32,000 bases of DNA from assembly GCF_000392435.1 (NCBI RefSeq), contig NC_021219.1, positions 981,782 through 1,013,781 on the forward strand, written 5' to 3'. The first letter of the stretch is position 1. Every line of letters begins with the position of its first letter. Shown in pieces: positions 547-29,501 of this stretch. The notes beneath the pieces are model-generated. The model worked only from the letters and a program-made list of their open reading frames with translations, was not told the DNA's origin and did not search any database. The position numbers and the translations under genes were made by a program. The DNA is from Candidatus Saccharimonas aalborgensis (GTDB taxonomy: Bacteria > Patescibacteriota > Saccharimonadia > Saccharimonadales > Saccharimonadaceae).

Positions 547-577
547 AGTCAAGTCAAAAGAGTGAGGATACTTGACT
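547..577. promoter_or_regulatory. 8-bp inverted repeat AGTCAAGT-N15-ACTTGACT overlapping the -35 of the RNA promoter (possible operator)
   Basis: 547-554 agtcaagt is the exact reverse complement of 570-577 acttgact. The right arm contains the TTGACT -35 box. Confidence 0.3.
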
Positions 578-600
578 TTTATATAAATATAGTGTAAAAT
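572..600 (+). promoter_or_regulatory. near-consensus sigma70-type promoter driving the G+C-rich RNA locus
   Basis: TTGACT (572-577), a 17-nt spacer, then TAAAAT (595-600), all in an AT-rich stretch just before the G+C-rich block. Confidence 0.6.
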
Positions 601-604
601 AGTA

Positions 605-1068
605 CACGAGTCCATTGTAGTTTGACAACCCCAACCCCCTGAAAGGATACCTGATGGGAAAGAGATGGCCTGGCATGGGTCGCCTGCGCGCAAAGCGCAA
701 AGCGACTGCCCAGCTCGCCGCTGCTAAGGCAGCGGCGGCGGTGAGGGCTCAGGAGGTCGTGAACGACCTCCTGTATCCCCACCAACGGGAGCACGGTACT
801 TCGCTTCTCGAGCGGCTGCACCCAGAGCCGCTCGACGTGTCGGATCACTCCGGCACGCCCAACCCTCGACGTCGTGTGCGCCATCGGGCAGACCGTCGGC
901 GACGGCTGCCCGAGGCGCTTGTCACCGAGCGGCCCTGCGCCGCTCGCGGCCACCACCGTGGCTGCGAGTGTGCTGACTACGTCTGGGAGCCGCTTCACGC
1001 ATGAAGCGTGCTCCCGACACCTACAATGGATTGGCCCTTACTGCACTCGCGGTAGGGGCCTTTCCTTT
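605..1068 (+). ncRNA. unclassified large structured RNA (~460 nt, G+C-rich, multi-hairpin, closed by a long-range helix)
   Basis: Closing helix 611-620 tccattgtag / 1021-1030 ctacaatgga. Perfect or near-perfect hairpins: 716-737 (9 bp), 750-773 (10 bp), 808-835 (10 bp), 837-856 (7 bp), 884-913 (13 bp, 1 bulge), 943-968 (11 bp), 985-1015 (13 bp, 1 bulge). Promoter upstream, terminator downstream. Counted G+C is 41/60 and 40/60 for lines 661-780. Confidence 0.6.
1033..1068 (+). terminator. intrinsic terminator of the RNA locus
   Basis: 9-bp stem ggcccttac/gtaggggcc (1033-1041 / 1052-1060, one G-U) with a 10-nt loop, followed by tttccttt. The T-tract is present only on the plus strand. Confidence 0.55.
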
Positions 1069-1086
1069 GCAGCTACTTTCGAAATA

Positions 1087-2624: not shown

Positions 2625-2767
2625 ATGGTTATTGATAGCATTCGTGGGCATGCTTGATCATTGACAAGCAAGCATGTAGCCTACGGTGCTCCTACGAACT
2701 CCTAGCTCACTCGAGCTGGTGAGAAAAAGACCCTATCAAGACGGGTCACTATGGAAGGAGTTGCCTC

Positions 2768-3223
2768 TTGCCCAAGAAGGTCAAGAATCTGTTCGGTAAG
2801 ACATTCGGCTACGAAGGAGGTGTGGTCAACTTTGACGGACATATGGGCATGTTCGTCGGCGACGACAACGAACCCTTCGCCGGACGTGAGGGTGAGCAGG
2901 TGGTTCCGTACCCCATTGTTCCTCCTGCCGGGGAATCGTCGGCTCGTCGGGCACTCGTCGAGCTGGTGAACCAGACGCTTGCGTCGAGGTACGGTTCCAA
3001 GTTGGATGGAATCATCGTCAGCCCACGGATGGCACGAAACCTCTTCCTCGAGGGGCTGATCACGCCGGTCCATCTGGCTGCGGCCATCGAAGAGGCATTC
3101 GAGGGAGACCTCGTTCTCGTCATCCCGGATGTCAACATCGCTGGGCACCTCCTGTACATCGAGGTCGACAGCAACGCCGCGGTGAACTCATTCGCCATCG
3201 ACCGAAAGGGGTATCTGATCTGA
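2768..3223 (+). CDS. hypothetical protein, 151 aa, G+C-rich (foreign composition)
   Basis: TTG start 7 nt after GGAAGGAG (2753-2760). Third codon positions are mostly G/C. 38/60 G+C counted for 2881-2940. I recognise no family. The overlapping minus-strand ORFs look like G+C-rich shadow frames. Confidence 0.7.
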   Translation: MPKKVKNLFGKTFGYEGGVVNFDGHMGMFVGDDNEPFAGREGEQVVPYPIVPPAGESSARRALVELVNQTLASRYGSKLDGIIVSPRMARNLFLEGLITPVHLAAAIEEAFEGDLVLVIPDVNIAGHLLYIEVDSNAAVNSFAIDRKGYLI

Positions 3224-3242
3224 TGTCGATCCGATCGATGAC

Positions 3243-3276
3243 GAGGGGCGGCGTAGCAGTTTTTGCGCCGCCCCTC
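3243..3276. terminator. 11-bp G+C-rich hairpin without a U-tail, between two convergent genes
   Basis: gaggggcggcg (3243-3253) pairs perfectly with cgccgcccctc (3266-3276) across a 12-nt loop. No T-run follows on either strand. Confidence 0.4.
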
Positions 3277-3322
3277 AGGGGGGTCTCCGTTACCATCGCT
3301 ACACATGCTTGCTTGTCGCAAT

Positions 3323-3344
3323 ACCCCATAAAGGGGTTTTATTT
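3323..3344 (+). terminator. small intrinsic terminator
   Basis: acccc-ataaa-ggggt followed by tttatttat. The T-tract is on the plus strand. Confidence 0.4.
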
Positions 3345-3353
3345 ATATCGTTT

Positions 3354-3788
3354 CTACGCAGCTTGTTCGGAAGCGCGACGAAACACGAGCACTGTATCTG
3401 CTTGTGCATCTCGATCTTTGCGCACAATGGGTAGGGGTAGCTCACCAGCGATCTCTTTGAGTGCTCCCGCAAGAAATAAATCTAAGTCCATTGTTCCTGA
3501 AGCAATCTGACGCCACCCTGTCTCGGAGACAACAACTTTCCCATCGAGGAAGTCTATAAGTTTCTCTGGCAAAAAGCCCTCTATTGCGCCGATAGTCTCG
3601 TCGCTCACCGTCCAACCTGCATCTCTGGCCAGATGCTCTAGGCGCCCCACCTGTGCGCCAATGAACTGCCTGCGGAGATTTCCGTACCCCTCGCGAATGG
3701 CACGTGCTAGTCGCTCACGACCAGCTTGCTCGTAGTTGCGCCGATGTTCATTCCAATCGATCGCTATTTCGGGTACGCGTGGCATCAT
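3354..3788 (-). CDS. hypothetical protein, 144 aa
   Basis: GGAGG (3793-3797) precedes tandem ATGs at 3788 and 3785; the spacing favours 3785. An extended -10 TGcTATAGT lies at 3815-3823 (minus strand). G+C is above the host level (31-39/60 in three counted lines). No family recognised. Confidence 0.65.
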   Translation of the reverse strand: MMPRVPEIAIDWNEHRRNYEQAGRERLARAIREGYGNLRRQFIGAQVGRLEHLARDAGWTVSDETIGAIEGFLPEKLIDFLDGKVVVSETGWRQIASGTMDLDLFLAGALKEIAGELPLPIVRKDRDAQADTVLVFRRASEQAA

Positions 3789-6949: not shown

Positions 6950-7534
6950 TTAGCGGCCTCCTTCTTTCTCAAACGGTAGTCCAAATTTCTCGAGTAACGC
7001 GCGGCTTGCTAGTTTGTTGCCTTGCTTGATGGCAAACGTGATTTGCATGCCGTGGACGAGTTGTGTTTCCTCGAAACTTAGTTCGGGGAAAATGCTCTGG
7101 TCGGTGATACCGAGATTGTAGTTACCGCCGCGATCAAACTTGAGGCCGACGCCGTGAAAGTCGCGGACACGTGGCAATGCGACATTGACAAAACGATCGA
7201 GGAACTCGTACATTTGTGTACCACGAAGGGTGACGTTGATGCCAACAGGCGCACCCATACCAGCACGGATCTTGAACGTCGCAATTGATTTCTTTGCGAG
7301 ACGTTCGACGGGCGCTTGGCCTGTGACGCGAGTCAGTGTATTCTTGACGGTTTCAAGCATACGCTTGTCGTCTTTTGTCTTACCTGTTCCTACGCTGACG
7401 ACGATTTTCTCGAGAACTGGTACTTCATGTACGTTATCGAGCTTCAGTTCGGCTTGCAGTTCCTTGACATAGGTGTCACGGTACAAGGCTTTCAAGCGAG
7501 GAGTGTAGACGGCTTGTTTCTTGGATTCTGCCAT
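6950..7534 (-). CDS. rplE: 50S ribosomal protein L5
   Basis: 194 aa, typical L5 sequence (...ITDQSIFPE...). TAATG overlap with rplX. Confidence 0.95.
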   Translation of the reverse strand: MAESKKQAVYTPRLKALYRDTYVKELQAELKLDNVHEVPVLEKIVVSVGTGKTKDDKRMLETVKNTLTRVTGQAPVERLAKKSIATFKIRAGMGAPVGINVTLRGTQMYEFLDRFVNVALPRVRDFHGVGLKFDRGGNYNLGITDQSIFPELSFEETQLVHGMQITFAIKQGNKLASRALLEKFGLPFEKEGGR

Positions 7535-7852: not shown

Positions 7853-8221
7853 CTAGAGTACCTCCGGCGCAAGGCTGATGATCTTTGCGTAGCCCAGATC
7901 GCGCAGCTCGCGGGGTACGGGACCAAAGACACGCGTTGCCTTGGGGGTCTTGTCATCGTTGATAATTACTGCGGCGTTATCATCAAAGCAGATTGTGCTA
8001 CCGTCGCGGCGGCGAATTTGATCGCGTGTGCGAACGATAACTGCCTTGACAACTGACTTTTTCTTGACGTTTCCGGTGGGGTTGGCATCTTTTACGCTTG
8101 CGGTAATGATATCACCAACTCTCGCATAGCGACGCCTAGAGCCACCAAGCACCTTGATACAAAGGATTTCCTTTGCACCACTGTTGTCGGTGACCTTGAG
8201 ACGAGTTTCTTGTTGGATCAT
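7853..8221 (-). CDS. rplN: 50S ribosomal protein L14
   Basis: [18 protein letters not shown]... Start trimmed to ATG 8221. Confidence 0.95.
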
Positions 8222-9842: not shown

Positions 9843-9847
9843 ACTAT

Positions 9848-10048
9848 TTAAACCTCCTGTTCTTCTAGTTGAGCGAGAATTGCAGCTGCTTGTGCAACGC
9901 TCTCAGGTGAATGTACTGGAACCGGAGATGCTTCACGCAACTCTTGTGCGGGATACCAATCCCAGGGCATCGATACCTTACCTGGTTTATATTCTGCACC
10001 CTTAGGTAAGCCAAATTGGATAACGTGCTTGGCTTGAGAGGTAATCAT
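9848..10048 (-). CDS. small ORF (66 aa) between rplV and rpsC
   Basis: MITSQAKHVIQFGLPKGAEYKPGKVSMPWDWYPAQELREA...LEEQEV. TAATG overlap with the rplV stop. It ends 5 nt before the rpsC ATG, and its last codons carry the rpsC GGAGG. Confidence 0.45.
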   Translation of the reverse strand: MITSQAKHVIQFGLPKGAEYKPGKVSMPWDWYPAQELREASPVPVHSPESVAQAAAILAQLEEQEV

Positions 10049-10458
10049 TATTTTTCCCCCTTTGTAGTAGCCTCAGTTTTCTTCTCGGCTGGTTTCTTAC
10101 GAACTTTTTCGGTACCACTTACCTCGACGAGGATGTGGCTACTGCGCTTTTGGAATGGCAAGGCGCGTCCGCGTGATGCAGGCTTGAACCGTCGCATACG
10201 AGGACCGGCGGTAACGCTTAAAATGCTAATGACAAGGCTCTTGTTGTCAAGCCCGTGGTTGTTTGTGGCATTTGCTGCCGCACTCGCGATGGCCTTGCGA
10301 ACCGCCAGCGCTGCACGCTTTGGTGTGTGGTCAAGGATGACCAACGCATCGGCGACAGAGCGTCCGCGAACAAGAGCGGCGACCAAGCCCATCTTTCGTG
10401 GCGTCTGGTCTATGCCCTTAATGTGCGCACGTACAGTATATACTTGTGTCTCAGCCAT
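10048..10458 (-). CDS. rplV: 50S ribosomal protein L22
   Basis: 136 aa, ...ARAHIKGIDQTPRKMGLVAALVRGRSV.... Confidence 0.95.
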   Translation of the reverse strand: MAETQVYTVRAHIKGIDQTPRKMGLVAALVRGRSVADALVILDHTPKRAALAVRKAIASAAANATNNHGLDNKSLVISILSVTAGPRMRRFKPASRGRALPFQKRSSHILVEVSGTEKVRKKPAEKKTEATTKGEK

Positions 10459-10727: not shown

Positions 10728-11567
10728 TTACCTCTTCCTCTTAGCTTCGTGACGACTGCGGACAATCATCTTGTCGGTTGATTTACGAGTGCGGGTGCGG
10801 TAACCGAGTGTGAGCTGACCCCATGGAGTACGAGGTGCTTTACCGGTACCGTGGCGGCCACCGTCACCACCACCGTGAGGGTGATCTACGGCATTTTGGA
10901 CGACACCGCGAACAGTTGGACGAATGCCTTTGCGGCGCTTGCGGCCGGCGCTCCCGATCTTGATGTTTTGGTGCTGAACATTACCGACGATGCCGATGGT
11001 TGCTTCACATTCGAGGCGGAATTTGCGGACTTCACCGCTTGGCATACGTACCATTGCGTAGTCACCTTCTTTAGCCATCAGCTGAGCTTTAGTGCCGGCA
11101 GCTCGAACGAGCTGAGCACCTTTGCCGACAGTAAGCTCGATTGCGTAGATCTGTGAACCGACAGGAATTTGTCCGAGAGGCATACGGTTGCTTGTCTCGA
11201 TGGGTGCTTCTGCACCGGTATTGAGTACCTTACCTTTGGACATCTGTGTATCTGCAAGGATGTAGTGATACAATCCGTGCTGATCTTTGACGCGAGCGAT
11301 ACGCGCACTACGGTTTGGGTCGTATTCAATTTCCTCGACAGTCAGTGTCAAACCATTTGCAAGACGATGATTGAGCAAGCGATAGTGACGACGTACACCA
11401 CCACCGCGATGGCGAACAGTGATACGTCCGGTATTGTTACGGCCTGCTCGCTGCTTGGTGCTCTTTACAAGACTTTTGAGCGGCTTGCGAGTCGTAATAT
11501 CACTCATATCCTGACTTGTCATACCGCGACGTGCAGGAGTAGTTGGGTTGTAGCTTTGGATAGCCAT
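10728..11567 (-). CDS. rplB: 50S ribosomal protein L2
   Basis: 279 aa, ...DHPHGGGDGG..., an L2 signature. Confidence 0.95.
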   Translation of the reverse strand: MAIQSYNPTTPARRGMTSQDMSDITTRKPLKSLVKSTKQRAGRNNTGRITVRHRGGGVRRHYRLLNHRLANGLTLTVEEIEYDPNRSARIARVKDQHGLYHYILADTQMSKGKVLNTGAEAPIETSNRMPLGQIPVGSQIYAIELTVGKGAQLVRAAGTKAQLMAKEGDYAMVRMPSGEVRKFRLECEATIGIVGNVQHQNIKIGSAGRKRRKGIRPTVRGVVQNAVDHPHGGGDGGRHGTGKAPRTPWGQLTLGYRTRTRKSTDKMIVRSRHEAKRKR

Positions 11568-11812
11568 TAGTAAATACCTCCAGGTCCAAGTGGTAGACGA
11601 GTATTATCTGTGCGACGAACGTGGGCCGTATCAGGCACGCAAGTGAGGTCAAGCCCACCTGAGTCGGCAGTGGTTGCTGCCTCATCAACTCCAGCTGCAG
11701 TGTGTGCTCGGTTGCCCAGGCGGGCGAGTCGCGCAGCATCATCTGGCGATAGCTCTACGCTAACCTGTTTGCGGTCAATTTTCGTGTATGGAGGAGTTTT
11801 ATACATATCCAT
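11567..11812 (-). CDS. small ORF (81 aa), G+C-rich, between rplW and rplB
   Basis: MDMYKTPPYTKIDRKQVSVELSPDDAARLARLGN...PLGPGGIY. TAATG overlaps at both ends (11810-11814 and 11565-11569). GAGGAG lies 8 nt upstream. 35/60 and 39/60 G+C counted in lines 11641-11760. Confidence 0.45.
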   Translation of the reverse strand: MDMYKTPPYTKIDRKQVSVELSPDDAARLARLGNRAHTAAGVDEAATTADSGGLDLTCVPDTAHVRRTDNTRLPLGPGGIY

Positions 11813-13369: not shown

Positions 13370-13478
13370 AGCCCTCTTTGCTCCCATTTAAAATCCCCGG
13401 TGGCCAGTGGTTTCCCTCTACAGGACCTACTGATTCACACAGGAACAAGTTTGTATTACGTAATAAGTTACAATGCTT

Positions 13479-13507
13479 AGTCTATCAAATGCGCTCTACT
13501 GTGTCAA
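13479..13507 (-). promoter_or_regulatory. putative promoter for the rplC...rplO transcription unit
   Basis: The minus strand reads TTGACA (13502-13507), a 17-nt spacer, then TAGACT (13479-13484). The leader to the rplC ATG is ~100 nt. Confidence 0.5.
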
Positions 13508-13542: not shown

Positions 13543-13572
13543 TTGACAAAATCTGTATTTATATTATATATA
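13543..13572 (+). promoter_or_regulatory. putative promoter for the G+C-rich three-gene cassette
   Basis: TTGACA (13543-13548), then a TATATA/ATATAT -10 region at 13565-13572 (16-18 nt spacer). It lies back-to-back with the rplC promoter. Confidence 0.5.
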
Positions 13573-13635
13573 TGGGATGGTAACATACAGCCTGGAAATA
13601 CCAGGTGTTCCTTAGCAGAAAGAGGTGTTACTATC

Positions 13636-13881
13636 TTGAAATCACGTGTGACTGGTATGGTTCTCGGCCTTGTGGTGCTCACGGCCTGCGGCGCTTCAAG
13701 CACCGCGGCCGCTGATACTCAACCGAACATGAACCCGAGAACTGGATGGGTTGTCGTTCGAGAAGATCGGCAGGTCGGAGTGTCCAAGGTGTGTGATGGG
13801 TCAACACTCATCTACCACGCCTTTGCCTACAACGGCAATGGCGGACTGGCTGTCATCGCAAACAGTCCCGAGTGCTCATAA
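13636..13881 (+). CDS. small putative lipoprotein (81 aa)
   Basis: TTG start 10 nt after AGAGG. The N-terminus MKSRVTGMVLGLVVLTAC has a basic n-region, a hydrophobic core and the lipobox L-T-A-C. The mature part has two Cys. G+C-rich. Confidence 0.6.
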   Translation: MKSRVTGMVLGLVVLTACGASSTAAADTQPNMNPRTGWVVVREDRQVGVSKVCDGSTLIYHAFAYNGNGGLAVIANSPECS

Positions 13882-13901
13882 GCAGATAGTGAGGAAAACT
13901 C

Positions 13902-14312
13902 ATGGTCAAGCCCACGATGGGTCTCGGTGACCCGATCAGTGACAAGCAGGCAGCTCGGCTTGAGCGCGTCTACCAAGTCGTGCGAGGAGTGACCGATCGC
14001 ATCTACAGGCCCCTCGACATGGAGAGGGGCGACCAGCACTTTGTGACGGAAGTCGCGAAGTACGTCATCGGCGTCGACACGACATCGCTCGACCTGCCGT
14101 TCAACCCCGAGGCCATCATGCCATTGGGGGCCAAACTCACCAAGCGGCAGCGCCGGCTGATCGGTGACGTCGTCTATGTCTGGATGCGTCGGTTCACGAC
14201 CGACTACCAGTACATGGTGCGGCTTGTCCTCCTGGCGCGGTTCGCGCGCTTCTCGAACCCAGTTCGGGTCGAGATGGCGAATCAGGCCGTCGGCCATCGT
14301 CCCAAGGAGTAG
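13902..14312 (+). CDS. hypothetical protein, 136 aa, G+C-rich
   Basis: ATG 6 nt after GAGGA. 36/60 G+C counted for 14041-14100. No family recognised. Confidence 0.6.
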   Translation: MVKPTMGLGDPISDKQAARLERVYQVVRGVTDRIYRPLDMERGDQHFVTEVAKYVIGVDTTSLDLPFNPEAIMPLGAKLTKRQRRLIGDVVYVWMRRFTTDYQYMVRLVLLARFARFSNPVRVEMANQAVGHRPKE

Positions 14313-14363
14313 GCGCTACACACTAGCCCGCTCCTACCCGCATTCTCCGGAATCATTCCGTCG

Positions 14364-14396
14364 AGAAGCCCGTAGGAGGCGGGCTTTTCGATTTTT
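14364..14396 (+). terminator. intrinsic terminator inside the cassette
   Basis: Stem agcccg/cgggct (14367-14372 / 14380-14385) with a 7-nt loop, followed by ttttcgattttt. Confidence 0.5.
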
Positions 14397-14424
14397 AGGA
14401 GATTATATGATATAGTATGGAAAT

Positions 14425-14766
14425 ATGACGGCAACAGGGCCGTCCCGTGTCCTAGGAGGATCTGTGAGCAGAAACCGTGTACCGACGTGGAAAAAGGTTC
14501 GGCACGACGCCCTCGCATCGTTGCGAGGCAGCGGCTACGAGATCGATAAGGCCATCGTCGCCATCGTGACCGCCTGCGCTCGCTACGTCGTCGGTCAAGA
14601 CTACGACCACTCGGTCGTGGACTTCGGCGATCGCGACCTGTGGGTCGACCGCGAGTACCGCCCCATCATCAGTGCGGCGGCCGACGCCGCCGACGCACTC
14701 GGGTCTAGTCACCTGGACATCTACGAGCGTGTCGGCCACCTGTACCACCTCGTCCATCAGGACTAG
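14425..14766 (+). CDS. hypothetical protein, 113 aa (or 100 aa from GTG 14464), G+C-rich
   Basis: ATG 14425 has a weak RBS. The in-frame GTG at 14464 follows AGGAGG by 4 nt. No family recognised. Confidence 0.55.
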   Translation: MTATGPSRVLGGSVSRNRVPTWKKVRHDALASLRGSGYEIDKAIVAIVTACARYVVGQDYDHSVVDFGDRDLWVDREYRPIISAAADAADALGSSHLDIYERVGHLYHLVHQD

Positions 14767-14773
14767 GCGACAC

Positions 14774-14823
14774 ACGACGACAGATGGGTGAGCTCTCCTC
14801 TAAAGCTCCCCGTCTGTCGTCGT
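14774..14823. terminator. long G+C-rich hairpin (15-bp outer stem plus 5-bp inner stem) without a U-tail
   Basis: acgacgacagatggg (14774-14788) pairs with cccgtctgtcgtcgt (14809-14823) with one G-U. Inner stem gagct/agctc. Confidence 0.4.
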
Positions 14824-14825
14824 TC

Positions 14826-14856
14826 CAACCCTGATGCGCATCGGGGTTGTTTTTAA
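14826..14856 (+). terminator. intrinsic terminator closing the cassette
   Basis: ~10-bp stem caaccctgat/atcggggttg followed by ttttt. The T-tract overlaps the stop codon (14853-14855) of the convergent deacetylase gene. Confidence 0.55.
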
Positions 14857-16292
14857 TTTGCACTATAGATAGACTTACCCGGAGAACCATTTGGCCCAAA
14901 CAACTGCTCAATACTGACAAACACATAGCCCTGTTTTGTGAGTGTCTCGAGGATGCGTGGAACAGCCGCGACACTCGTCTGGTGAATGTCGTGCAAAATG
15001 ATAATCGCACCCGGTTTTGCCCCCGCTATCACTCGGTTGTACACGATATCTGTGTTGCGATCAGCCCAATCGCGTGTATCTACCGACCACATGATTGCCG
15101 TCATCTTACGCTCGACTAGCACAGTGTAGACCGTATGGTTGATAGCACCATTTGGTGGACGCATATAGGGTGTATCTTTGCCGGTAACTTGCTTGATTGC
15201 GTTATTTGTCCGGGTGAGCTCGTCATTGATACGAGCGGGTGTCAGATACGAAAGTGACGGATGACCCCAGCTATGGTTCCCGATCGTGTTTCCAGTATCA
15301 GACGCTCGTTTCAGTACGTCGCGGTGCTTATCGATATTTTGACCGATGACAAAGAAACTTGCATGTGCATGATAACGCTGCAATGCGTCGAGCACTTGGT
15401 TTGTATAGTTGCTCGGCCCGTCGTCAAACGTCAAAGCAATACATTTGAGTTTTGAGCAGTCTACGTCACCGTTTTTGAGTGGCTGATACTCGGGTATTTG
15501 ATCGATTGAGACGATATCAAGAAGTTTTCTGGCTTGATCGGTCTGCAAAAACAGTTGCAAGTTATCAATTGGCAGCGATACATCGATAGCGCCTGCCGCT
15601 TCGCTGGCAATCACGCCTTGGCCAAATGAGAATTGAATCGTATGCGGATTTGTGATGACAAATGACCCAAATGAAGGACTATCAAAAACCTTATTGACGA
15701 GGCGGTCATCATATTCGTTTGTTACCTCGAGACGAGCCATCAGTTTTTGTTTGAGGTAGAGCTTTGTCCGTGCGATACCATCTGTGCTTTTTTGTCCATA
15801 GAGGTCTCGGAGCGTGATTTCTTTGCCGGTTTTTAGATCAAATGTCCACGCCCTGACATCAGTTCGGGGGCTTGATCCCCCTACCTCACTTCTGCTCTGT
15901 ATCAAGATCGAGATAGTGTCGGTACCCTTGTTTGTGAGCTGGTAGGTAGCATTCAGTTTTGACATGGGGCGAGGCACGATCATACGCGCACCTTCTACAT
16001 CTCTTAAGAACTGCGTTTTTCGTTCGTCGAGGTAGCTACGCACACTAGCGGTTATCATTTTGTTGTCCATTTCAGGATATTCGACCATCATCGTTATATG
16101 CCGAGACGAAACAGAGGTAACTTTTGACTTGACTCCTTCGTAGCGTGCATCAACCCAAAAATACTGCTCATTGATGGCTTCGGTGACGGGTCGAAGCCAA
16201 CTGACTACAAAAAATAATGCTGTTCCGCTGATGATAGAGACGATTATCACCAGCGCCCAGGGGAACCGCGCTCGACGGGCACGCCGTCTCAT
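14853..16292 (-). CDS. membrane-anchored polysaccharide deacetylase (NodB/CE4), PdaC-like architecture
   Basis: Start trimmed to ATG 16292 (ATGA overlap with the upstream gene). N-terminal TM (WALVIIVSIISGTALFFVV), a ~250-aa middle region, then CE4 motifs TFDDGPS and GNHSWGHP. Confidence 0.85.
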   Translation of the reverse strand: MRRRARRARFPWALVIIVSIISGTALFFVVSWLRPVTEAINEQYFWVDARYEGVKSKVTSVSSRHITMMVEYPEMDNKMITASVRSYLDERKTQFLRDVEGARMIVPRPMSKLNATYQLTNKGTDTISILIQSRSEVGGSSPRTDVRAWTFDLKTGKEITLRDLYGQKSTDGIARTKLYLKQKLMARLEVTNEYDDRLVNKVFDSPSFGSFVITNPHTIQFSFGQGVIASEAAGAIDVSLPIDNLQLFLQTDQARKLLDIVSIDQIPEYQPLKNGDVDCSKLKCIALTFDDGPSNYTNQVLDALQRYHAHASFFVIGQNIDKHRDVLKRASDTGNTIGNHSWGHPSLSYLTPARINDELTRTNNAIKQVTGKDTPYMRPPNGAINHTVYTVLVERKMTAIMWSVDTRDWADRNTDIVYNRVIAGAKPGAIIILHDIHQTSVAAVPRILETLTKQGYVFVSIEQLFGPNGSPGKSIYSAN

Positions 16293-16615: not shown

Positions 16616-16705
16616 ATCGACAGTATAGCATAAGCGCTACTTGCGTTTTTTGGTACAGTCGTAGATAATGTAGCTCAGAATAGCATAAGCAGGATAAACT
16701 CAATC

Positions 16706-17017
16706 ATGGCCACCCCAAAGAAGAAAACCACCCCAAAAAAGCGACCCGTTTCAGTCAAAAAGACCGTTGTACGCAAGGTATCGGTTGCCCAGCAACCCAC
16801 GGTACGAACATTTAAACGTTCACATCCGTCGGACCCATTCTTTACTTTCCGCATGACACACCAGACACTTTACTGGTTTATACTCTGTGCTATGGTACTC
16901 GGTCTGGGCTTATGGGTGATTAGCATTAACGAGAAAGTCCAGCAGATCTATGATCAGATTGATCAGACAAATGCGGCCGCTGATGCTACTTATGTCCCTT
17001 TAAAAGTCAAAAAATAG
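16706..17017 (+). CDS. small single-pass membrane protein with Lys/Pro-rich N-terminus (103 aa)
   Basis: MATPKKKTTPKKRPVSVKK..., then the TM segment LYWFILCAMVLGLGLWVISI. A TTGCGT-17-GATAAT promoter-like sequence lies upstream and a terminator downstream. Confidence 0.55.
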   Translation: MATPKKKTTPKKRPVSVKKTVVRKVSVAQQPTVRTFKRSHPSDPFFTFRMTHQTLYWFILCAMVLGLGLWVISINEKVQQIYDQIDQTNAAADATYVPLKVKK

Positions 17018-17089: not shown

Positions 17090-17416
17090 TTACATGCGGA
17101 TTTCGGCATCAACTCCAGCAGGGAGCGAGAGATTTTGCAAGCTATCGATCGTCTTGGGTGTTGCGTTAGTTATGTCGATCAAGCGTTTGTGGACGCGCAT
17201 CTCGAACGCTTCGCCGCCCATTTTGTAAACATGTGGACTCTTGACGACAGTGTAAGTGCTTCGGCGCGTTGGAAGCGGTACTGGTCCTGCAATTTGCGCT
17301 CCCGAACGGATTGCGGTATCGATGATTTGCTTTGCTGATTGATCGATCACCTTGTGATCATATGCTTTGAGACGAATGCGGATGCGTAGTCCCTCTGCTG
17401 GTTTTGTGTCTGCCAT
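17090..17416 (-). CDS. rpsJ: 30S ribosomal protein S10
   Basis: [28 protein letters not shown]... ATG 17416 lies 9 nt after GAGGAG. Confidence 0.95.
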
Positions 17417-17517
17417 GATCAAAATCTCCTCTCAATGGCGATGCTCCAGTAACCTCTCCTCGATTCGGTGTCGACAGCGTCTGGGCGAGTTCTCTGGTGC
17501 GATTAGTATCTAGCAAG

Positions 17518-23605: not shown

Positions 23606-24343
23606 CTACCACGGCTTTTTGATTGAATAATCTGCCTCTCTCGAGCGATAATCACTCTCTTGGCGACGTACTTCGCCCTCTTCGATTAGTTTTTCAAGCT
23701 TATCCATCTGGTCCTTTGACGGAGCTTGATTAGCTTCTTCCACCTCCTTTCCTGTGCTATTTGGGTCTTGGTAGCTTTTTTTCTTTATAGCATTTGTAAC
23801 CGAAGAAAGCTTTTCGGCAATACGCATACTTAATTTCTCGTACTCCTTAAAACAATCGTTGTTTGCCCTTATCTCCCCAATCGCTTTTGTGTAGTACTGG
23901 ATTGCTTCTTCCGGCTTTGCACGAGCAATAGCATCATCACCAGCGAGCTCTGTAGCGAGCACAGACTGAGTACGTATAAAGCATTTTTTGTCCTCTGGCG
24001 CTAACACTATTGCTGTCCTAAACTGTTCGATCGCAAGATCAAATTGTTTCTGATGCATGGCAACAATTGCTTTATTAAATGGAACCTTATACTTTTCAAG
24101 TACTGTACCATATGCCGCGTAGTTCAACCACTGTTCCGCAGTGGTATAATCACCTCTATCTGTGGCCTGTATTGCGACTATCGTCGCGACTGTCGGTAGA
24201 GCAAGCCAACATGCTAACCCTACCAAAACCAACATTAGAGGCAACGACCATCGAAATAACGTACGTCTCCGCGCGTATCGTCTCGCTTCAAAGTCGAGCT
24301 TAGTAATATCGAGAGGACGCTCCACTGTGGCCATACTACTCAA
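23606..24343 (-). CDS. TPR-repeat membrane protein (BatC-like)
   Basis: One N-terminal TM followed by TPR-like helical repeats. It is the last gene of the MoxR/vWA operon and overlaps the upstream gene by 8 nt. Confidence 0.65.
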   Translation of the reverse strand: MSSMATVERPLDITKLDFEARRYARRRTLFRWSLPLMLVLVGLACWLALPTVATIVAIQATDRGDYTTAEQWLNYAAYGTVLEKYKVPFNKAIVAMHQKQFDLAIEQFRTAIVLAPEDKKCFIRTQSVLATELAGDDAIARAKPEEAIQYYTKAIGEIRANNDCFKEYEKLSMRIAEKLSSVTNAIKKKSYQDPNSTGKEVEEANQAPSKDQMDKLEKLIEEGEVRRQESDYRSREADYSIKKPW

Positions 24344-25355
24344 CCCCTTTCATACCTAGGTGTATCGTAGGTAGTATTTCCATAAACCACCAAACAAGAA
24401 GAAGCGTCATAACGATGCTTAGCATCCAATACGTACTCAAGTAAAACAATACCTCTCGGTGCGTATCGACGACAACCTCCAATCGACTCTCACTCACAAT
24501 AGCATCAATCGGCTCGTTCTGATTTGTTCTATGAAAATACTTTAATCCTAGGCTCTCAGCGATTGTGCGAAGATTACGTTCATCGACTTTCGATACAGCA
24601 CGGCCTCCTGGCTTCGTTGCTATCTCACTATAGTCCGGAACATATTTAAACGACTCAGCTATCTTAACGTTGCGTATGCCATAGTAAGTAGTCATGTATG
24701 CTCCAGCTTCTGTACCATAACCCAGTACGGCTCCTCCGTCTATCATTGGCCTCAATTCTGCAAATGAGCGTGGTACATTGCTACTCGTCTGCTCCCCATC
24801 TCCAATGTAAAAGAATAACCTACCTCTGTCGGGGTGTGACTCCCCACTTTTTTCGAGTAAACGCTTCACTACATCGATGGGCTTATCAATGCTCGTTCCG
24901 GTAGAGTAATTTGAATTTTCAAGATCAAGTACTTTTACTGCTGTCATGACTGCGCTAGCATCCGTTGTGAGCGGAACACTGACTCGCGCACTTGAGTCAA
25001 AAGTTACAATTGCAATATGGGCGCCATTAATCTTATGAATTAGCTTCATGAGATCTGTCCGAGCTCCCTCAATACGTGGTTGTTGATCACTGTAATCAAG
25101 CGCCGACATACTTGTTGTTCGATCAATTGCGATAACTACATCGACATTTAGCATCCCCGCGGGAGATCTCCCGCCAGGATAGCTCGGCCCCAGCGCTATC
25201 AGAATCAAGACGATGCCCATGGCAACACCACGCCAGTATGCATGTGACCGTAGCCCGCTACCTTTGGTTCTGATAACAGATAGTATGCAAGCAACGAGAA
25301 AACAACTTCCACATGCGATAATAACCCAGTAAGGAACGAGTGGCTGTAAAATCAT
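24336..25355 (-). CDS. vWA-domain membrane protein (BatB-like)
   Basis: Start at ATG 25355 (ATGA overlap, AAGGAG upstream). N-terminal TMs, the MIDAS-like motif VVIAIDRTTSM, and a C-terminal TM. Confidence 0.75.
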   Translation of the reverse strand: MILQPLVPYWVIIACGSCFLVACILSVIRTKGSGLRSHAYWRGVAMGIVLILIALGPSYPGGRSPAGMLNVDVVIAIDRTTSMSALDYSDQQPRIEGARTDLMKLIHKINGAHIAIVTFDSSARVSVPLTTDASAVMTAVKVLDLENSNYSTGTSIDKPIDVVKRLLEKSGESHPDRGRLFFYIGDGEQTSSNVPRSFAELRPMIDGGAVLGYGTEAGAYMTTYYGIRNVKIAESFKYVPDYSEIATKPGGRAVSKVDERNLRTIAESLGLKYFHRTNQNEPIDAIVSESRLEVVVDTHREVLFYLSTYWMLSIVMTLLLVWWFMEILPTIHLGMKGVE

Positions 25356-26425
25356 AACTTCAAGCTCCTTATTACTAACACAAGACAAATTATGGTGATA
25401 GCTAATATAATGAAACTAGGTCCAGGAGTATCAGTCGTTGTATATTGCGACTCACCGACAAAGAGTTTCGCCTCTTGCTGAGATATCTTTTGAACCACAT
25501 CTGAGATCACGTCTACCGAAGAAAGCCGGTAGTAGGCTCCACTTGTCATTATCGTGTAAAGCTTCAGAGTTTCATGCTCCTTAAAACTAGTGTCAGGTTC
25601 GTTTGGATCAGACTGTCGCGTCGCGTCATTATAGACACCTGGATCAAGAGAGTAGACGCGAATGTTTTTTTGTTTTGCAAGCATCATCGACTGTTCCGTC
25701 GTGATTATTCCTTGAGTTTTTGGATCTCCACCACCAAACTCGTTGTCCGTCGCAAGAATAATTGATTGTGAGCGACCAGTTGTGTTCTCACCGAGATGCT
25801 TAACACACCCTGCTAGACCCAATCCAATATTTGATGTTGGCAGATCACTGCGGAACAAAAGAGTCCCTCCTATGAATCGTTGGTACTCTTCAAATTGATC
25901 TGATGAAGCGGATTGGGGATTAATGGAGAGGGCCTTTTTTATCTCAACTAATTTTTCCTGAATCAAATTATAGTCATCTGTCAGAGGAAAAACCTGCGAA
26001 CCGACCATGTTAAAAATATCAAGTCCTACTCGTTGTCCTCGGAAGCTAGTAATGAGATGTAAGTATGTATCAACCAATGATTCATCCACTGCCCTCATAG
26101 AACCCGACACATCTAGACATAGCATGATATCTCTATTTCGTTCGGAAGGCGTAATGATGTTTTGTTCAGATGGACGAAGTGTCAATAATAACGATGCGCA
26201 GAGAGCTAAACAAAAGAGTATTAGTACAGCTAAAGTCATGAAACGATACCGTTGCGCAATACGCTTGTACTCGGATAATCGAGTAATCCGGCTACTATGA
26301 GCCGTCCGAATAATTACACGAGAGGACCTCGTATATTTTTTAAGCCAACTTCGTTTATAAGCAATTCCTAAAATGATTGCTAGTACCAACCACACGACGA
26401 TGAACCATAGGTTTAAGAAGACCAT
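25352..26425 (-). CDS. vWA-domain membrane protein (BatA-like)
   Basis: N-terminal TMs, the MIDAS motif LCLDVSGSM, and a C-terminal TM. Confidence 0.8.
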   Translation of the reverse strand: MVFLNLWFIVVWLVLAIILGIAYKRSWLKKYTRSSRVIIRTAHSSRITRLSEYKRIAQRYRFMTLAVLILFCLALCASLLLTLRPSEQNIITPSERNRDIMLCLDVSGSMRAVDESLVDTYLHLITSFRGQRVGLDIFNMVGSQVFPLTDDYNLIQEKLVEIKKALSINPQSASSDQFEEYQRFIGGTLLFRSDLPTSNIGLGLAGCVKHLGENTTGRSQSIILATDNEFGGGDPKTQGIITTEQSMMLAKQKNIRVYSLDPGVYNDATRQSDPNEPDTSFKEHETLKLYTIMTSGAYYRLSSVDVISDVVQKISQQEAKLFVGESQYTTTDTPGPSFIILAITIICLVLVIRSLKL

Positions 26426-26895
26426 TCGCTCACTACCTTTCGTGCACCTGCCAACGCTTCGTCGACATTGCCATTTTCTACAACGGAGAACTCGGGCGCA
26501 TAGTACCCCTCGATTATAGGAACTAGCTTGGTATGACGAGAACGTTTCAGATCGGCTAGTGTCATAGTCGCCACCGATGATTGAGTAGCATGAGACGCAA
26601 ATTGTCTCACTACAGTTGATAATTGCTGGTGAAGAACACGAGCGTAGATAGTTCGACTACGATACTCATGCTCAATAGCGTCGATTTTTTCTAGGTATTC
26701 ACTTTTGAGTAGTGTCAAATCCATGGCGAGAGAAGGAGCTGGCGAAAGAGATGCAAGGGTTTTTTGTTGACGGCGACGCGTTATCAACAGGATACTTACA
26801 AGAATAGTACTAAGTAAAACGATGCATCCGCCAGCATAAATCATAGCCAGCGGACCCTGTGACAGCAAAGGTGACAAATCAGGTATATCGTGCAC
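26413..26895 (-). CDS. single-pass membrane protein (DUF4381-like position in MoxR/Bat operons)
   Basis: 160 aa. TM segment MIYAGGCIVLLSTILVSILLI followed by RRRQQ. Overlaps both neighbours. Confidence 0.5.
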   Translation of the reverse strand: MHDIPDLSPLLSQGPLAMIYAGGCIVLLSTILVSILLITRRRQQKTLASLSPAPSLAMDLTLLKSEYLEKIDAIEHEYRSRTIYARVLHQQLSTVVRQFASHATQSSVATMTLADLKRSRHTKLVPIIEGYYAPEFSVVENGNVDEALAGARKVVSEWSS

Positions 26896-27760
26896 TTCGA
26901 TGCCTTTCTAAGAGGCGAAATACTTTGGGCACTGCTTCTTCCTCAGACGATACTGTCTCTGTCGCTATAGCCATACGGTTTAACTCACGTTCAAACTTCT
27001 GGCGGTTTTCTGCTTCTTCACGCCGAAAAGCAGCCATGACAGTTTTATTTCGCCGAATAAAGGCCGGTAGTATATGCCCAATCTGCTCTACGTCCGCGAT
27101 AAACGAGCGCATCGTCAGGTCAGCATCAGATACGCGCAGCCATAGTATTTCGTGCTGTGCGCGTAGCCTCTTTACGACACTGCGCACTGACTCATCAAAC
27201 TCAATTTCATCAGATATGACAACTACTATCATCTTGCGTCGAACATTTCGCACAACGTACTCAAGTTGGCTCGCAATATTACTCTCATCAGACTCGTCAA
27301 CAACAGAAGTATCAATGACTTGAAGTAACCGTTCTAGATGAGTCATGCCCGTCTTGAGCGGGTGATAGCGTGAATGCCCTTTGTCTCCAGAAACCATCCC
27401 CACTAGATCGCCGTGTTTTAACGCAACTGTTCCGATAACTCCGGCAAGCATGATGACTGTGTCCTTTTTTGAAGAGCCACTATCCGTTACTGCTGTCATA
27501 TTTCTCCCCGTATCAATGACAAGCATGATGTTATGTTTGCGAACGGCAATATAGCGTCGAATACGCGTAGCTCCGCTCCGTGCTGTTGCTTTCCAGTCAA
27601 TATCCTTTATATCATCTCCCGGAATGTACTCGCGAAGATCATCGAAATCCATACTCCTTCCCTTAAAAACCGAGCCATACTCGCCAACTAGCACCCCCCG
27701 CACTCTCTCGTGTGCGTATATTGCCATCTTGGCCTTAACGTTTGTTAGCAAGCTACCCAT
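26879..27760 (-). CDS. DUF58 family protein (vWA-like, MoxR partner)
   Basis: ...FDDLREYIPGDDIKDIDWKATARSG..., the characteristic DUF58 motif. Confidence 0.85.
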   Translation of the reverse strand: MGSLLTNVKAKMAIYAHERVRGVLVGEYGSVFKGRSMDFDDLREYIPGDDIKDIDWKATARSGATRIRRYIAVRKHNIMLVIDTGRNMTAVTDSGSSKKDTVIMLAGVIGTVALKHGDLVGMVSGDKGHSRYHPLKTGMTHLERLLQVIDTSVVDESDESNIASQLEYVVRNVRRKMIVVVISDEIEFDESVRSVVKRLRAQHEILWLRVSDADLTMRSFIADVEQIGHILPAFIRRNKTVMAAFRREEAENRQKFERELNRMAIATETVSSEEEAVPKVFRLLERHRSARYT

Positions 27761-27763
27761 AGA

Positions 27764-28819
27764 CTACGGTGCAGTAACTGCCCCAAAAATCGCATCGATA
27801 ATTGCTTCTGGATGAATCTGATCTGCAATAGCCTCAAAGTTCAAGATTATGCGATGTCGCAAGACGCTATGACGAAGTTCTTTAACGTCCTCAGGTATAA
27901 CGTAGTTGCGTCCATTGATAATCGCAAGTGCTTTCGCAACCTGTTGAAAAGCAATACTAGCGCGCGGACTTCCTCCGTACTGTATATATTTTGCATAGTC
28001 CTGACTAATATAGGTACTCGGCTGACGAGTTGCTGCTACGATTGTTACGATATATTGTTTTATAGCGTCATCAATATAGACCTTATTAACTAATTCTTGG
28101 AGAGCAAGTATATCATCGATTTCAACATGAGCAGATACACCCGATTTTGCATCTTCGCCTAAAATGCCTGATTCAATACGTTTGAGTATCTCAAGTTCCT
28201 GCGAAACTGTCGGGTAGTCGAGTACTTCTTTGAGTAAGAATCGATCAAGTTGGGCCTCTGGAAGTTCATAAGTACCCTCCTGCTCGATGGGGTTTTGGGT
28301 AGCAAGAACAACAAATGGTTTCGGCAATGGGTAATTTGTTCCGCCAATACTTGTCTGTCTCTCCTGCATCGCTTCGAGCATCGCGCTCTGTGTCTTTGCG
28401 CTGCTTCGATTTATCTCATCTAGCAAAATAAAATTTGCATGAACAGGACCGAGTTGCGTACGGAACTCACCCTTTGAGTAGTCGTATATTTGCGTACCGA
28501 TAATATCGCTTGGCAGCAGATCCGGTGTACACTGGATGCGCTTAAAGCTAGCATTAACTGATTTGGCAAGCGTATGAGCCGCAGTTGTTTTTGCTAGACC
28601 CGGTACACTCTCAAGAAGAACATGACCACCCGTTATCATACTGACAAGTAACGCCGTCTTGAGGTTTTCTTGACCAACGACATGTTGGCCAAACACCTCA
28701 GCTATTGTTGCGAGGACGTTCCGCGCACGATCCATTTGCTCTTGCCCAATACTATTTGTACCCGGCATTGAGAAATCCTCTGTTGGTGATTGTAGTGGTT
28801 GTCCTTGCTCTTGTTCCAT
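27764..28819 (-). CDS. MoxR-family AAA+ ATPase
   Basis: Start trimmed to ATG 28819 (AAGGAGAG upstream). Walker A LLESVPGLAKTT and Walker B ILLDEINR. Confidence 0.92.
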   Translation of the reverse strand: MEQEQGQPLQSPTEDFSMPGTNSIGQEQMDRARNVLATIAEVFGQHVVGQENLKTALLVSMITGGHVLLESVPGLAKTTAAHTLAKSVNASFKRIQCTPDLLPSDIIGTQIYDYSKGEFRTQLGPVHANFILLDEINRSSAKTQSAMLEAMQERQTSIGGTNYPLPKPFVVLATQNPIEQEGTYELPEAQLDRFLLKEVLDYPTVSQELEILKRIESGILGEDAKSGVSAHVEIDDILALQELVNKVYIDDAIKQYIVTIVAATRQPSTYISQDYAKYIQYGGSPRASIAFQQVAKALAIINGRNYVIPEDVKELRHSVLRHRIILNFEAIADQIHPEAIIDAIFGAVTAP

Positions 28820-28838
28820 GTACTCTCCTTTTCCCGTC

Positions 28839-29501
28839 TTATGCCCAATATTGCGCGATGTATACGGCAAGCTTTTGCTTCTCCTCATCGCTGTATATAT
28901 CTTGATTCTCGAAATAATGATCCTCACCCATAACAGACGAGGGCAGTACATCGAGTATAATTGATTCATCGGTGTTTATACGAAACTGTTCAGAAACATC
29001 TATGGTTACATTGCCGACGGCTCCATAAACCCTGTGTGGAGTAAGGGGCTTAAGGAGAAGCTTGGCAACTTCTAGCTCAAGTGAATTCATCATGACATCT
29101 CCAACAAGAATAACAGTTCTATTGTTGAGAATATGTGGATCAGTCGTTCCGTGATACTCATTAACCGCCTGATTGAGTCGGCTCATCGCTTCACGTTTCT
29201 GGTCCTCTATCTGCGCCATGAACTCTTGCTTAATGTACTCGTAATCATTCTCTGTTATAGATGGATTGAGACAGAATTCTCCAGACTGTTCGAGCGCACC
29301 TAGTTTTGCAGTTGTATCAAGGGGGTTGGTCAGTTTTTCGTAAAAAAGAGGCAATATCCATGCGCGCAATTTTATAGCCATACCAACGGCAACCATCATA
29401 GAACTTGGTTTCATGCAGACAAGAACTGCGTCAGTACCTCTTACATTCGTAAGAGTATCCGCCAGCTTGTTACCCAGTGCCATGCGATCAGTAAAATACA
29501 T
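28839..29501 (-). CDS. phosphoribosyltransferase-like protein (COG1926-type) with degenerate PRPP-binding motifs
   Basis: The N-terminus MYFTDRMALGNKLADTL matches the family's MxFxDRxxAGxxLA pattern. The expected VDDGxATG loop reads VGDVMMNS, and the LPRGG loop reads MKPSS. Confidence 0.6.
   Translation of the reverse strand: MYFTDRMALGNKLADTLTNVRGTDAVLVCMKPSSMMVAVGMAIKLRAWILPLFYEKLTNPLDTTAKLGALEQSGEFCLNPSITENDYEYIKQEFMAQIEDQKREAMSRLNQAVNEYHGTTDPHILNNRTVILVGDVMMNSLELEVAKLLLKPLTPHRVYGAVGNVTIDVSEQFRINTDESIILDVLPSSVMGEDHYFENQDIYSDEEKQKLAVYIAQYWA

Follow-up and report, generated by a model that had tools for sequence, protein, structure and literature searches.

How does a block of small, G+C-rich genes (guanine plus cytosine, G+C) come to lie inside a string of ribosomal-protein genes in a bacterium whose relatives have tiny, highly syntenic genomes? 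The question is raised by a 32,000-nucleotide (nt) stretch of the Candidatus Saccharimonas aalborgensis chromosome (NC_021219.1, 981,782 to 1,013,781; hereafter the window, numbered from its first letter), in which three small plus-strand genes, here called C1, C2, and C3, occupy positions 13543-14856. The block is flanked by rplC on one side and by a convergent polysaccharide deacetylase gene on the other. An original prediction, made from the letters alone, had described it as a foreign cassette planted beside rplC, possibly by transfer from an actinobacterial host to its epibiont. The block is a real and well-bounded accessory gene cluster of one lineage, and the description modestly favoured for its anatomy and evolution is that of a lineage-restricted islet of moron-like units, gathered in a hot spot between rpsJ and rplC. 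Transfer from an actinobacterial host is not established.

At least 10 independent assemblies, among them CP065015.1 (1.0 Mb), CP065017.1 (0.94 Mb), and DCNO01000024, encode the identical C2 protein in the same surroundings, and a matching neighbourhood is present on several ENA, JGI, and Logan metagenome contigs from different samples. Therefore, the block is not a chimera, an artefact that the original prediction had asked to be checked by read mapping at its edges. The sole point in favour of a chimera or a mis-binned contaminant is the sharp change in composition at ~13.55 and 14.85 kb. Since the same junctions recur in the NCBI, ENA, JGI, and Logan assemblies (two of them of ~1 Mb), the flanks run on into rplC and the deacetylase gene, and allelic variants of the block occur with the same flanks, the probability of such an artefact is practically nil.

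The three predicted open reading frames (ORFs), an 81-amino-acid (aa) lipoprotein and proteins of 136 and 100-113 aa, were reproduced (Table 1), and none of the products could be assigned to a curated family, just as the prediction had recognised none of them. Both lengths are possible for C3, with the GTG at 14464 as the best start owing to a Shine-Dalgarno sequence (AGGAGG, 14454-14459) just 5′ of it. The coding frames lie on the plus strand, as seen from G+C at the three codon positions (GC3 > GC1 > GC2) and from ratios of nonsynonymous to synonymous substitution rates (dN/dS) of 0.16-0.24. All three genes are under purifying selection with dN/dS of ~0.2 (C1, 0.21; C2, 0.16-0.24; C3, 0.16-0.18). 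Antisense ORFs at 13827-14297 and 14452-14775 were rejected as genes, the codon-position G+C marking them as by-products of high G+C.

Promoters and terminators were called from consensus matches together with conservation. The predicted TTGACA promoter of the block was found at 13543-13548, back to back with the promoter-like site of rplC and facing away from it (13507-13479). In the related loci L105 and L011 (loci of other genomes carry L numbers), the putative promoter P1 retains TTGACA-N16-TATATA even though overall identity there is only ~74%, and the core of the rplC site, TGTCAAGGG, is kept as well; a consensus scan gives overlapping 9/12 matches at P1. In the same two loci, the stem of the hairpin ahead of C1 is conserved while its loop varies. 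The internal terminator, the tail-less hairpin, and the final terminator of the original prediction were all confirmed. Both terminators, T1 and T2, show the arrangement by which intrinsic terminators were recognised, in which a U-tract comes straight after a stable, G+C-rich hairpin. T1 is almost invariant in four strains and has a folding free energy (dG) of -35.6 (z = -4.2). The candidate promoter P2 lies immediately 3′ of T1 and is invariant in the same four strains, with no match in a two-hexamer scan, and this position and conservation suggest that C3 is probably a transcription unit of its own. The hairpin at the 3′ end of C3 varies only by G-U/G-C and U-A changes; it lacks a U-tract, so it is not a canonical terminator. 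T2, with its 10-bp hairpin, has a dG of -50.1 (z = -7.5), its pairing is kept in L107 through compensatory changes in two pairs, and its T-tract overlaps the deacetylase stop codon (14853-14855).

Table 1. Coordinates of the genes and putative signals of the block and of two further G+C-rich islands in the window
Feature	Position	Strand	Description
C1	13636-13881	+	81-aa lipoprotein precursor; TTG start; lipobox LTAC
C2	13902-14312	+	136 aa; basic (pI 10), cytoplasmic; five helices predicted
C3	14464-14766	+	100 aa from GTG 14464; 113 aa if from ATG 14425
rplC promoter-like site	13479-13507	-	TTGACA-17-TAGACT with TG; points away from P1
P1, putative promoter of unit 1	13543-13572	+	TTGACA 13543-13548, 16-nt spacer, TA-rich -10 tract (TATATATATG)
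5′-untranslated-region hairpin	13591-13605	+	CCTGGAAATACCAGG; small stem ahead of C1
T1, terminator	14325-14397	+	compound hairpin 14325-14385, then UUUUCGAUUUUU
P2, candidate extended -10 promoter for C3	14408-14416	+	TGATATAGT; just 3′ of T1
Tail-less hairpin	14774-14823	+	G+C-rich, 15+5 bp; 3′ end of C3
T2, terminator	14826-14859		10-bp hairpin 14826-14849 and T-tract; shared with the convergent deacetylase gene
Island A	570-1080	+	near-consensus promoter, orphan ORF 654-1004, hairpin terminator; between infA and secY
Island B	2640-3345	+	self-promoted orphan ORF 2768-3223, 14-bp G+C hairpin, U-tract terminator; between secY and ORF 3354-3788

The composition of the block sets it apart from its surroundings. 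In 400-nt windows, G+C is 0.56-0.61 over the block vs. 0.48 in the background, and the predicted count of 36/60 at 14041-14100 is exact. GC3 reaches 0.825 in C2 (z = 5.5) and 0.822 in C3 (z = 5.4), against 0.488 ± 0.061 in host genes (maximum 0.627, n = 37), whereas C1 is only slightly raised (0.585, z = 1.6); the composition that marks the block as foreign is carried by C2 and C3. C- and G-ending codons are both enriched in C2 and C3, including CGG, TCG, CTG, and ACG, and T-ending codons are shunned. In contrast, the ribosomal-protein and tuf genes prefer codons ending in C or T, and they avoid CGG, TCG, GGG, CTG, and ACG. Because C2 and C3 use G-ending codons that these genes avoid, their bias is not an extreme form of the translational preference of the host, and translational selection was rejected as the cause of the high GC3. 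Among third-position singletons of C2 and C3 in four strains, 40 changes run from G/C to A/T and 14 from A/T to G/C, compared with 93 and 77 at all positions of flanking host genes. Therefore, the G+C of the block is off equilibrium and falling, as expected of foreign DNA undergoing amelioration. Members of the C2 family elsewhere show the excess to varying degrees (GC3 of 0.61-0.80 vs. 0.50-0.58 in their neighbours), and even divergent ones keep it (P0014, 0.79; P0015, 0.68). Taken together, the composition points to a high-G+C source but to no specific phylum.

Relatives of C2 are few and confined to Saccharibacteria. Eight 90%-identity clusters were found among 5.8 billion, and a profile search of 1.84 billion representative proteins gave six 50%-identity clusters in all; no homologue of C2 or C3 outside Saccharibacteria was found in either collection. 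Every C2-family cluster that could be placed is saccharibacterial, mostly at the rpsJ-rplC site, and the close homologues of C2 and C3 are annotated as Candidatus Saccharimonas aalborgensis. P0014 lies between rplC and the deacetylase gene, P0015 between rplC and p103, P0012 5′ of a 465-aa membrane-anchored protein and a deacetylase-mem108-p103-rpsJ string, and P0013 next to insertion sequence elements and a deacetylase gene. P0015 bridges C2 and C3, as it matches the C2 profile (E = 7.8e-5, library-wide) and C3 by BLASTP (2e-12), and hhalign gives a probability of 63% (E = 7e-5). Therefore, C2 and C3 are paralogous. The AlphaFold model of C2 is confident and has five helices (mean predicted local distance difference test score, pLDDT, 80; predicted template modelling score, pTM, 0.77). 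No fold relative better than E = 1 was found with Foldseek in PDB and BFVD, and the family profile met only a chance-level match among PDB sequences (a dehalogenase subunit, E = 0.02). C2 and C3 define a new lineage-specific family of small alpha-helical proteins with an unmatched predicted fold, of which C2 is the founding member and which is limited to genomes of the Saccharimonas type. The pI of 10, together with Lys/Arg-rich tails in two distant family members, hints at nucleic-acid binding by C2.

Neither C2 nor C3 had a match in 50,697 phage genomes (tblastn) or in IMG/VR scans, and C2 had none among PLSDB plasmids (tblastn). Searches of Pfam, PHROGs, NCBIfam, and PADLOC returned no match for C1, C2, C3, or the orphan proteins of islands A and B, nor for P0012-P0015, so no described defence or toxin-antitoxin family is represented.

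C1 differs in that relatives are carried by phages. Its N-terminus, LKSRVTGMVLGLVVLTAC followed by GAS (also given as MKSRVTGMVLGLVVLTAC followed by GAS), has the textbook lipoprotein signal that had been predicted: a positive n-region (K2 and R4), a hydrophobic h-region (GMVLGLVVL), and L-T-A-C as the lipobox, for which the pattern [LVI][ASTVI][GAS]C was used. The prediction for C1 is thus export, followed by attachment through a lipid anchor to the outer side of the membrane, with a mature part of ~63 aa that holds two conserved Cys; neither lgt nor lspA is encoded in the window. In a word-indexed search C1 looked as isolated as C2 and C3. Diverged relatives were found by tblastn next to rpsJ in two other Saccharibacteria, L018 and L076, and a pattern search with the resulting alignment found proteins of the same size and build on six IMG/VR viral contigs. 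These combine an N-terminal lipobox or membrane anchor with NPxxGxVxV...KxCDG(S/T)TL(I/V)Y, and all six also share a C-terminal S(P/T)EC (SPEC) motif that was absent from the search pattern. The family comprises small envelope proteins with an ectodomain of ~45 aa and one disulfide, and alignment A11 shows G37, K51, C53, D54, G55, T57, L58, Y60, S77, E79, and C80 to be invariant. The lipobox is kept in P0018, L018, and two high-G+C viral homologues, while L076 and the low-G+C viral members have a plain membrane anchor. C1 is therefore one of a family of small envelope proteins associated with phages.

Two of the six viral contigs have 68-69% G+C and resemble actinophages, and the other four have 38-44%. 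The ~40% identity of C1 to the high-G+C viral relatives extends along the whole protein and takes in the signal peptide and the CGAS lipobox, and the score of 53 bits makes these relatives about as close as the homologues in other Saccharibacteria (48 bits). One of the two, L128 (IMG 3300044711, 82.5 kb), is phage-like, with DnaN, RusA, three DNA methylases, and long runs of small co-directional ORFs, one of which includes the C1 homologue (10001-10264) between RusA and a HIT-family gene. When the DNA of this 82.5-kb contig (as L122) was compared with the 50,697 phage genomes, actinophages made up 32 of the 33 matching records, including phages of Mycobacterium, Streptomyces, Microbacterium, Rhodococcus, Gordonia, and Arthrobacter. 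Two annotated contigs of the 38-44% G+C group carry phage-type RtcB, exonuclease, and methylase genes. C1 itself and its high-G+C relative had no tblastn match among the 50,697 phage genomes.

The site of the block is variable across Saccharibacteria. The prediction that it separates rplC from the rest of the S10 region was right in that the block adjoins rplC, but rplC and rpsJ (17090-17422) are also separated by the deacetylase gene and by two genes for small membrane proteins, a pair that Saccharibacteria usually have in this gap. In 50 species-level Saccharibacteria genomes, the gap between rplC and the nearest conserved gene upstream of it (mem108, p103, or rpsJ) measures 137 bp to 5 kb and has varied cargo. 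About 19 of the 50 species have essentially no insert, and others have a deacetylase, a VanY-like peptidase, or assorted orphans. This range of size and cargo indicates a long-standing variable slot, and the cassette is not the cause of the separation of rpsJ and rplC.

The block is not a recent insertion, since a sister species (rplC 90% identical; synonymous divergence, dS, 0.76; range 0.76-1.26) has C1-C2 at this site as well, and the block so predates the species split. Distant C2 homologues (28-48% identity) lie at or next to the same site in further Saccharibacteria. Comparison with sister genomes, which had been proposed as a check, thus showed the C1-C2 pair to be shared while modules vary among strains. 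The order C1, C2, C3 of the window is replaced by p75, C2, C3 in L014, L106, and L107 (97-98.6% DNA identity to the window) and by p131, C1, C2, p125 in L105, L108, and L011 (rplC 90% identical), which have no deacetylase gene. L097 has P0014 alone, and L104 and L101 have a C2 homologue with a 465- or 488-aa membrane protein (p465/p488), so that the third place is taken by C3, p125, p465/p488, or nothing. The swapped-in orphans p75, p131, p125, p66, and p465/p488 have no Pfam or PHROGs match, and the orphan proteins of the units are mutually unrelated, except C1 with L076 and p121 with p128.

Sequence exchange can be followed at close range between the window and L014. The two are 100% identical up to ~13490, share nothing from 13491 to ~14000 (inside C2), and then rise gradually in identity; in L014 the replaced part consists of a non-homologous promoter and an unrelated 75-aa gene (p75). 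Judged from the alignment, this is a recombinational replacement of the promoter, the first gene, and the 5′ end of C2. L106 joins the p75 module to a window-like C2 N-terminus. Between the window and L014, dS is 0.38 for C2 vs. 0.09 for rplC, a roughly fourfold difference that fits the import of diverged alleles. In L105 the additional p131 unit is stacked ahead of C1 with its own TTGACT-17-TATAAT promoter and hairpin terminator. On either side of the unit stands a copy of a degenerate 15-bp direct repeat, GTCAAGGGTTTTAAC / GTCAGGGGCATTAAT (7240-7259 and 7866-7885), derived from the rplC-promoter segment. The repeat may be the footprint of an insertion or of a duplication-mediated capture. 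Identity also dips to 79-89% in the p103 gene (16667-16966) and the deacetylase gene (15367-15666) between strains whose flanking genes are 98-100% identical, and these dips are further patches of recombination or diversification near the cassette.

In the favoured description, the block would consist of two moron-like units. Unit 1 would comprise P1, C1 and C2 as one transcript, and T1, and unit 2 the extended -10 promoter, C3, its 3′ hairpin, and the terminator common to the deacetylase gene. The units would have entered from a richer-G+C pool, probably borne by phages, before S. aalborgensis and its sister species split; they would have been losing G+C slowly since then, and recombination, with the rplC promoter and the conserved C2 core as its anchors, would still be reshuffling their modules among strains. 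As for function, the recurring neighbours in the slot are envelope proteins (lipoprotein, p465/p488, peptidoglycan deacetylase, VanY-like peptidase, and small membrane proteins), and together with the phage affiliation of C1 this makes a surface role the most economical guess. C1 might act as an exclusion or receptor-masking lipoprotein, by analogy with small phage envelope proteins, with C2 and C3 as small regulators or adaptors. That the block modulates the cell surface in encounters with phages or hosts is, however, a tentative and rather doubtful proposal.

Several observations weigh against the favoured description. P0014 has a GC3 of 0.79 at an identity to C2 of only ~35% (alignment A4 gives 34%, and the aligned codons 37%), which is not easily explained by a single ancient acquisition followed by steady amelioration. 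For high GC3 to last in divergent members, genes would have to be imported repeatedly from an unsampled pool, or a local force would have to keep G+C high. The G+C anomaly is weakest in C1, which alone of the three genes has phage relatives, and therefore C1 and C2/C3 may differ in history; the structure model of C1 is also poor (pLDDT 47). C2, C3, p75, p131, p125, and islands A and B are without viral homologues, and the functional proposal is an argument from analogy. Because the window has no phage structural, integrase, or transposase gene, "moron-like" refers to the architecture and not to a demonstrated prophage origin.

The prediction of host-to-epibiont transfer, by which actinobacterial or actinophage DNA would have been taken up by the epibiont and placed beside rplC, draws on the same composition. 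The GC3 of 0.82, the enrichment of codons ending in C as well as in G, the tail-less G+C hairpins 3′ of foreign ORFs, the continuing decay from G/C to A/T, and the 40% identity of C1 to lipoproteins on 68% G+C contigs, one of them with nearly all its matches in actinophages, are what such an origin would leave. It is nevertheless considered unlikely. Exhaustive searches gave no homologue of C2 or C3 in any actinobacterium or actinophage, and none of C2 on the PLSDB plasmids; C1 and its high-G+C relative went unmatched in the phage genomes, and the C1 family is found equally on viral contigs of 38-44% G+C and in other Saccharibacteria. The promoters are of host type, one per unit, and the block is older than the species split (dS 0.76-1.26). 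Published comparative work likewise reports no strong signal of Actinomyces-to-TM7x transfer (PMC7427843). Confinement of the homologues to candidate phyla radiation (CPR) genomes, named in the original prediction as evidence against such transfer, was found for C2 and C3, with the viral relatives of C1 falling outside it.

That confinement would rather suit native, fast-evolving Saccharimonas genes whose high GC3 is made locally, for instance by GC-biased gene conversion at a recombination hot spot or by selection on the mRNA. The family is limited to Saccharibacteria and fixed at one locus, recombination there is clear, high GC3 lasts in very divergent members (P0014 and P0015), and several other species also have small, divergent, GC3-rich ORFs next to rpsJ or rplC. 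Against this stand the 40:14 bias toward A/T, which leaves the composition off equilibrium, the use of G-ending codons that the highly expressed genes of the host avoid, and the ordinary G+C of the deacetylase and p103 genes, which also recombine. To our knowledge, no case of gene conversion has been described in bacteria that gives a GC3 excess of +0.33. A native origin is therefore also held to be improbable, and the islet of captured moron-like units is retained as the favoured description.

Two further G+C-rich islands in the window are built in the same style (Table 1). Islands A and B lie on the plus strand and break the minus-strand infA-secY-rplO stretch. Island A has a region G+C of 0.61 and encodes a 116-aa, Arg-rich protein with a Cys-rich C-terminus (ORF G+C 0.68); island B has a region G+C of 0.56, encodes 151 aa at a GC3 of 0.73, and lies between the arms of an inverted repeat, GACAAGCAAGCATGT (2661-2677 / 3303-3320). 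A long G+C hairpin closes each island, and S. aalborgensis assemblies, including that from Aalborg sludge (GCA_000390105.1), conserve the two. No repeat is common to the block and the islands, and nothing resembling att or attC sites was found. Islands A and B, p131, and p125 had no tblastn match in the 50,697 phage genomes, and IMG/VR scans with island B, p75, p125, and p131 gave no homologue. An IMG/VR match to island A (L127) was rejected as spurious, as it covers 11 residues in a non-coding frame. Self-promoted G+C-rich orphan units thus number at least three in the window, and more are stacked in sister genomes. A bolder reading is that Saccharimonas chromosomes repeatedly capture such orphans from high-G+C hosts or their phages and store them where ribosomal-protein operons begin or end. 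The C1 family, shared with actinophage-like contigs, would then be a surface factor that passes between the phages of the host and the epibiont, across phyla. This reading is speculative and quite unlikely.

Over the whole window, the minus strand carries infA, secY, and the spc/S10 ribosomal-protein genes, followed by rpsJ, tuf, and a MoxR/VWA operon. The latter (23606-29501, minus strand) encodes a MoxR AAA ATPase, a DUF58 protein, two VWA proteins, and a TPR protein (BatA-like), and is followed by ferric-reductase-like and ApbE genes. No phage genes are present in the 32 kb of the window, nor are tRNA genes or Rfam families. Upstream of the rplC start codon, a stretch of ~85 nt (13388-13473) can be aligned at the DNA level with L105 and L097, species in which rplC is only 90% identical, and is identical in L014; it may be a ribosomal-protein leader or regulatory RNA, for which Rfam gave no match. 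The S10 operon also includes co-oriented small ORFs of ordinary G+C between rplW and rplB (81 aa, 11567-11812) and between rpsC and rplV (~66 aa, 9843-10047). Neither segment is present in L105 or L097, and strain L003 has the second at a different length. A 144-aa ORF without a family match (3354-3788, minus strand) lies between rplO and secY beside island B, which is unusual in the spc region. Elsewhere in Saccharibacteria, unrelated small ORFs with a GC3 at least 0.2 above that of the genome lie divergently beside rplC or rpsJ in L036 (5428-5775), L091 (4248-4802), L067 (3234-3533), and L075 (4550-4909), all on the minus strand. G+C-rich orphans at the starts of ribosomal operons may be a wider saccharibacterial pattern.

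Little is known about the genes with which Saccharibacteria deal with hosts and phages. Here, a ribosomal-protein supercluster holds a slot in which small, foreign-looking genes gather and are swapped between strains. The locus defines the C2/C3 protein family, with a confident predicted fold that has no match, and ties a family of small lipoproteins to phage genomes, some of them on actinophage-type contigs. If an origin from hosts or their phages were proven, the locus would offer a concrete handle on gene flow between an epibiont and the community of its hosts. If the reading of repeated capture were true, it would be the first sequence-level trace of gene flow from host, or host phage, to epibiont, and C2/C3 would be a new small-protein family in the epibiotic lifestyle.

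Phage morons, known from the lambdoid-phage genomics of Hendrix and colleagues, are autonomous promoter-ORF-terminator units inserted between genes, often with deviant G+C. The units of the block resemble them in each having a putative sigma-70-type promoter, a hairpin terminator, and G+C unlike their surroundings. They likewise lie at gene boundaries, stand in tandem, and are swapped between close relatives, and C1 has homologues in phage accessory regions. In contrast to morons, the block sits in the ribosomal-protein cluster of a CPR chromosome with no phage genes nearby, and C2 and C3 are without phage relatives. Small envelope lipoproteins that serve in superinfection exclusion include Llp of T5, Cor of phi80 and N15, and Ltp of TP-J34. 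C1 is similar to these in being a very small lipoprotein with a short ectodomain and in belonging to a family found in early, non-structural phage regions, but it shares with them no sequence or demonstrated structural similarity. Integron cassettes are also small, single-ORF tandem modules with hairpin-forming 3′ ends; they are typically promoterless, whereas each unit here has its own promoter, and neither an integrase in the window nor a shared attC-like repeat was found. The closest likeness in setting is to genomic islets or hot spots, with conserved core flanks, a size of 0.14-5 kb, species-specific cargo, and non-homologous replacement between strains of ~98% identity. The S10/spc supercluster is normally among the most conserved of gene strings, and the slot departs from the usual islet in lying inside it, in the tiny size of its units, and in the lack of any integrase, tRNA gene, or att repeat found. 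A horizontally influenced orphan islet in a hot spot is a known type of element, and what is unusual about this one is its position in the ribosomal-protein supercluster of a CPR bacterium, a new protein family whose predicted fold has no match, and a lipoprotein with family members in phages.

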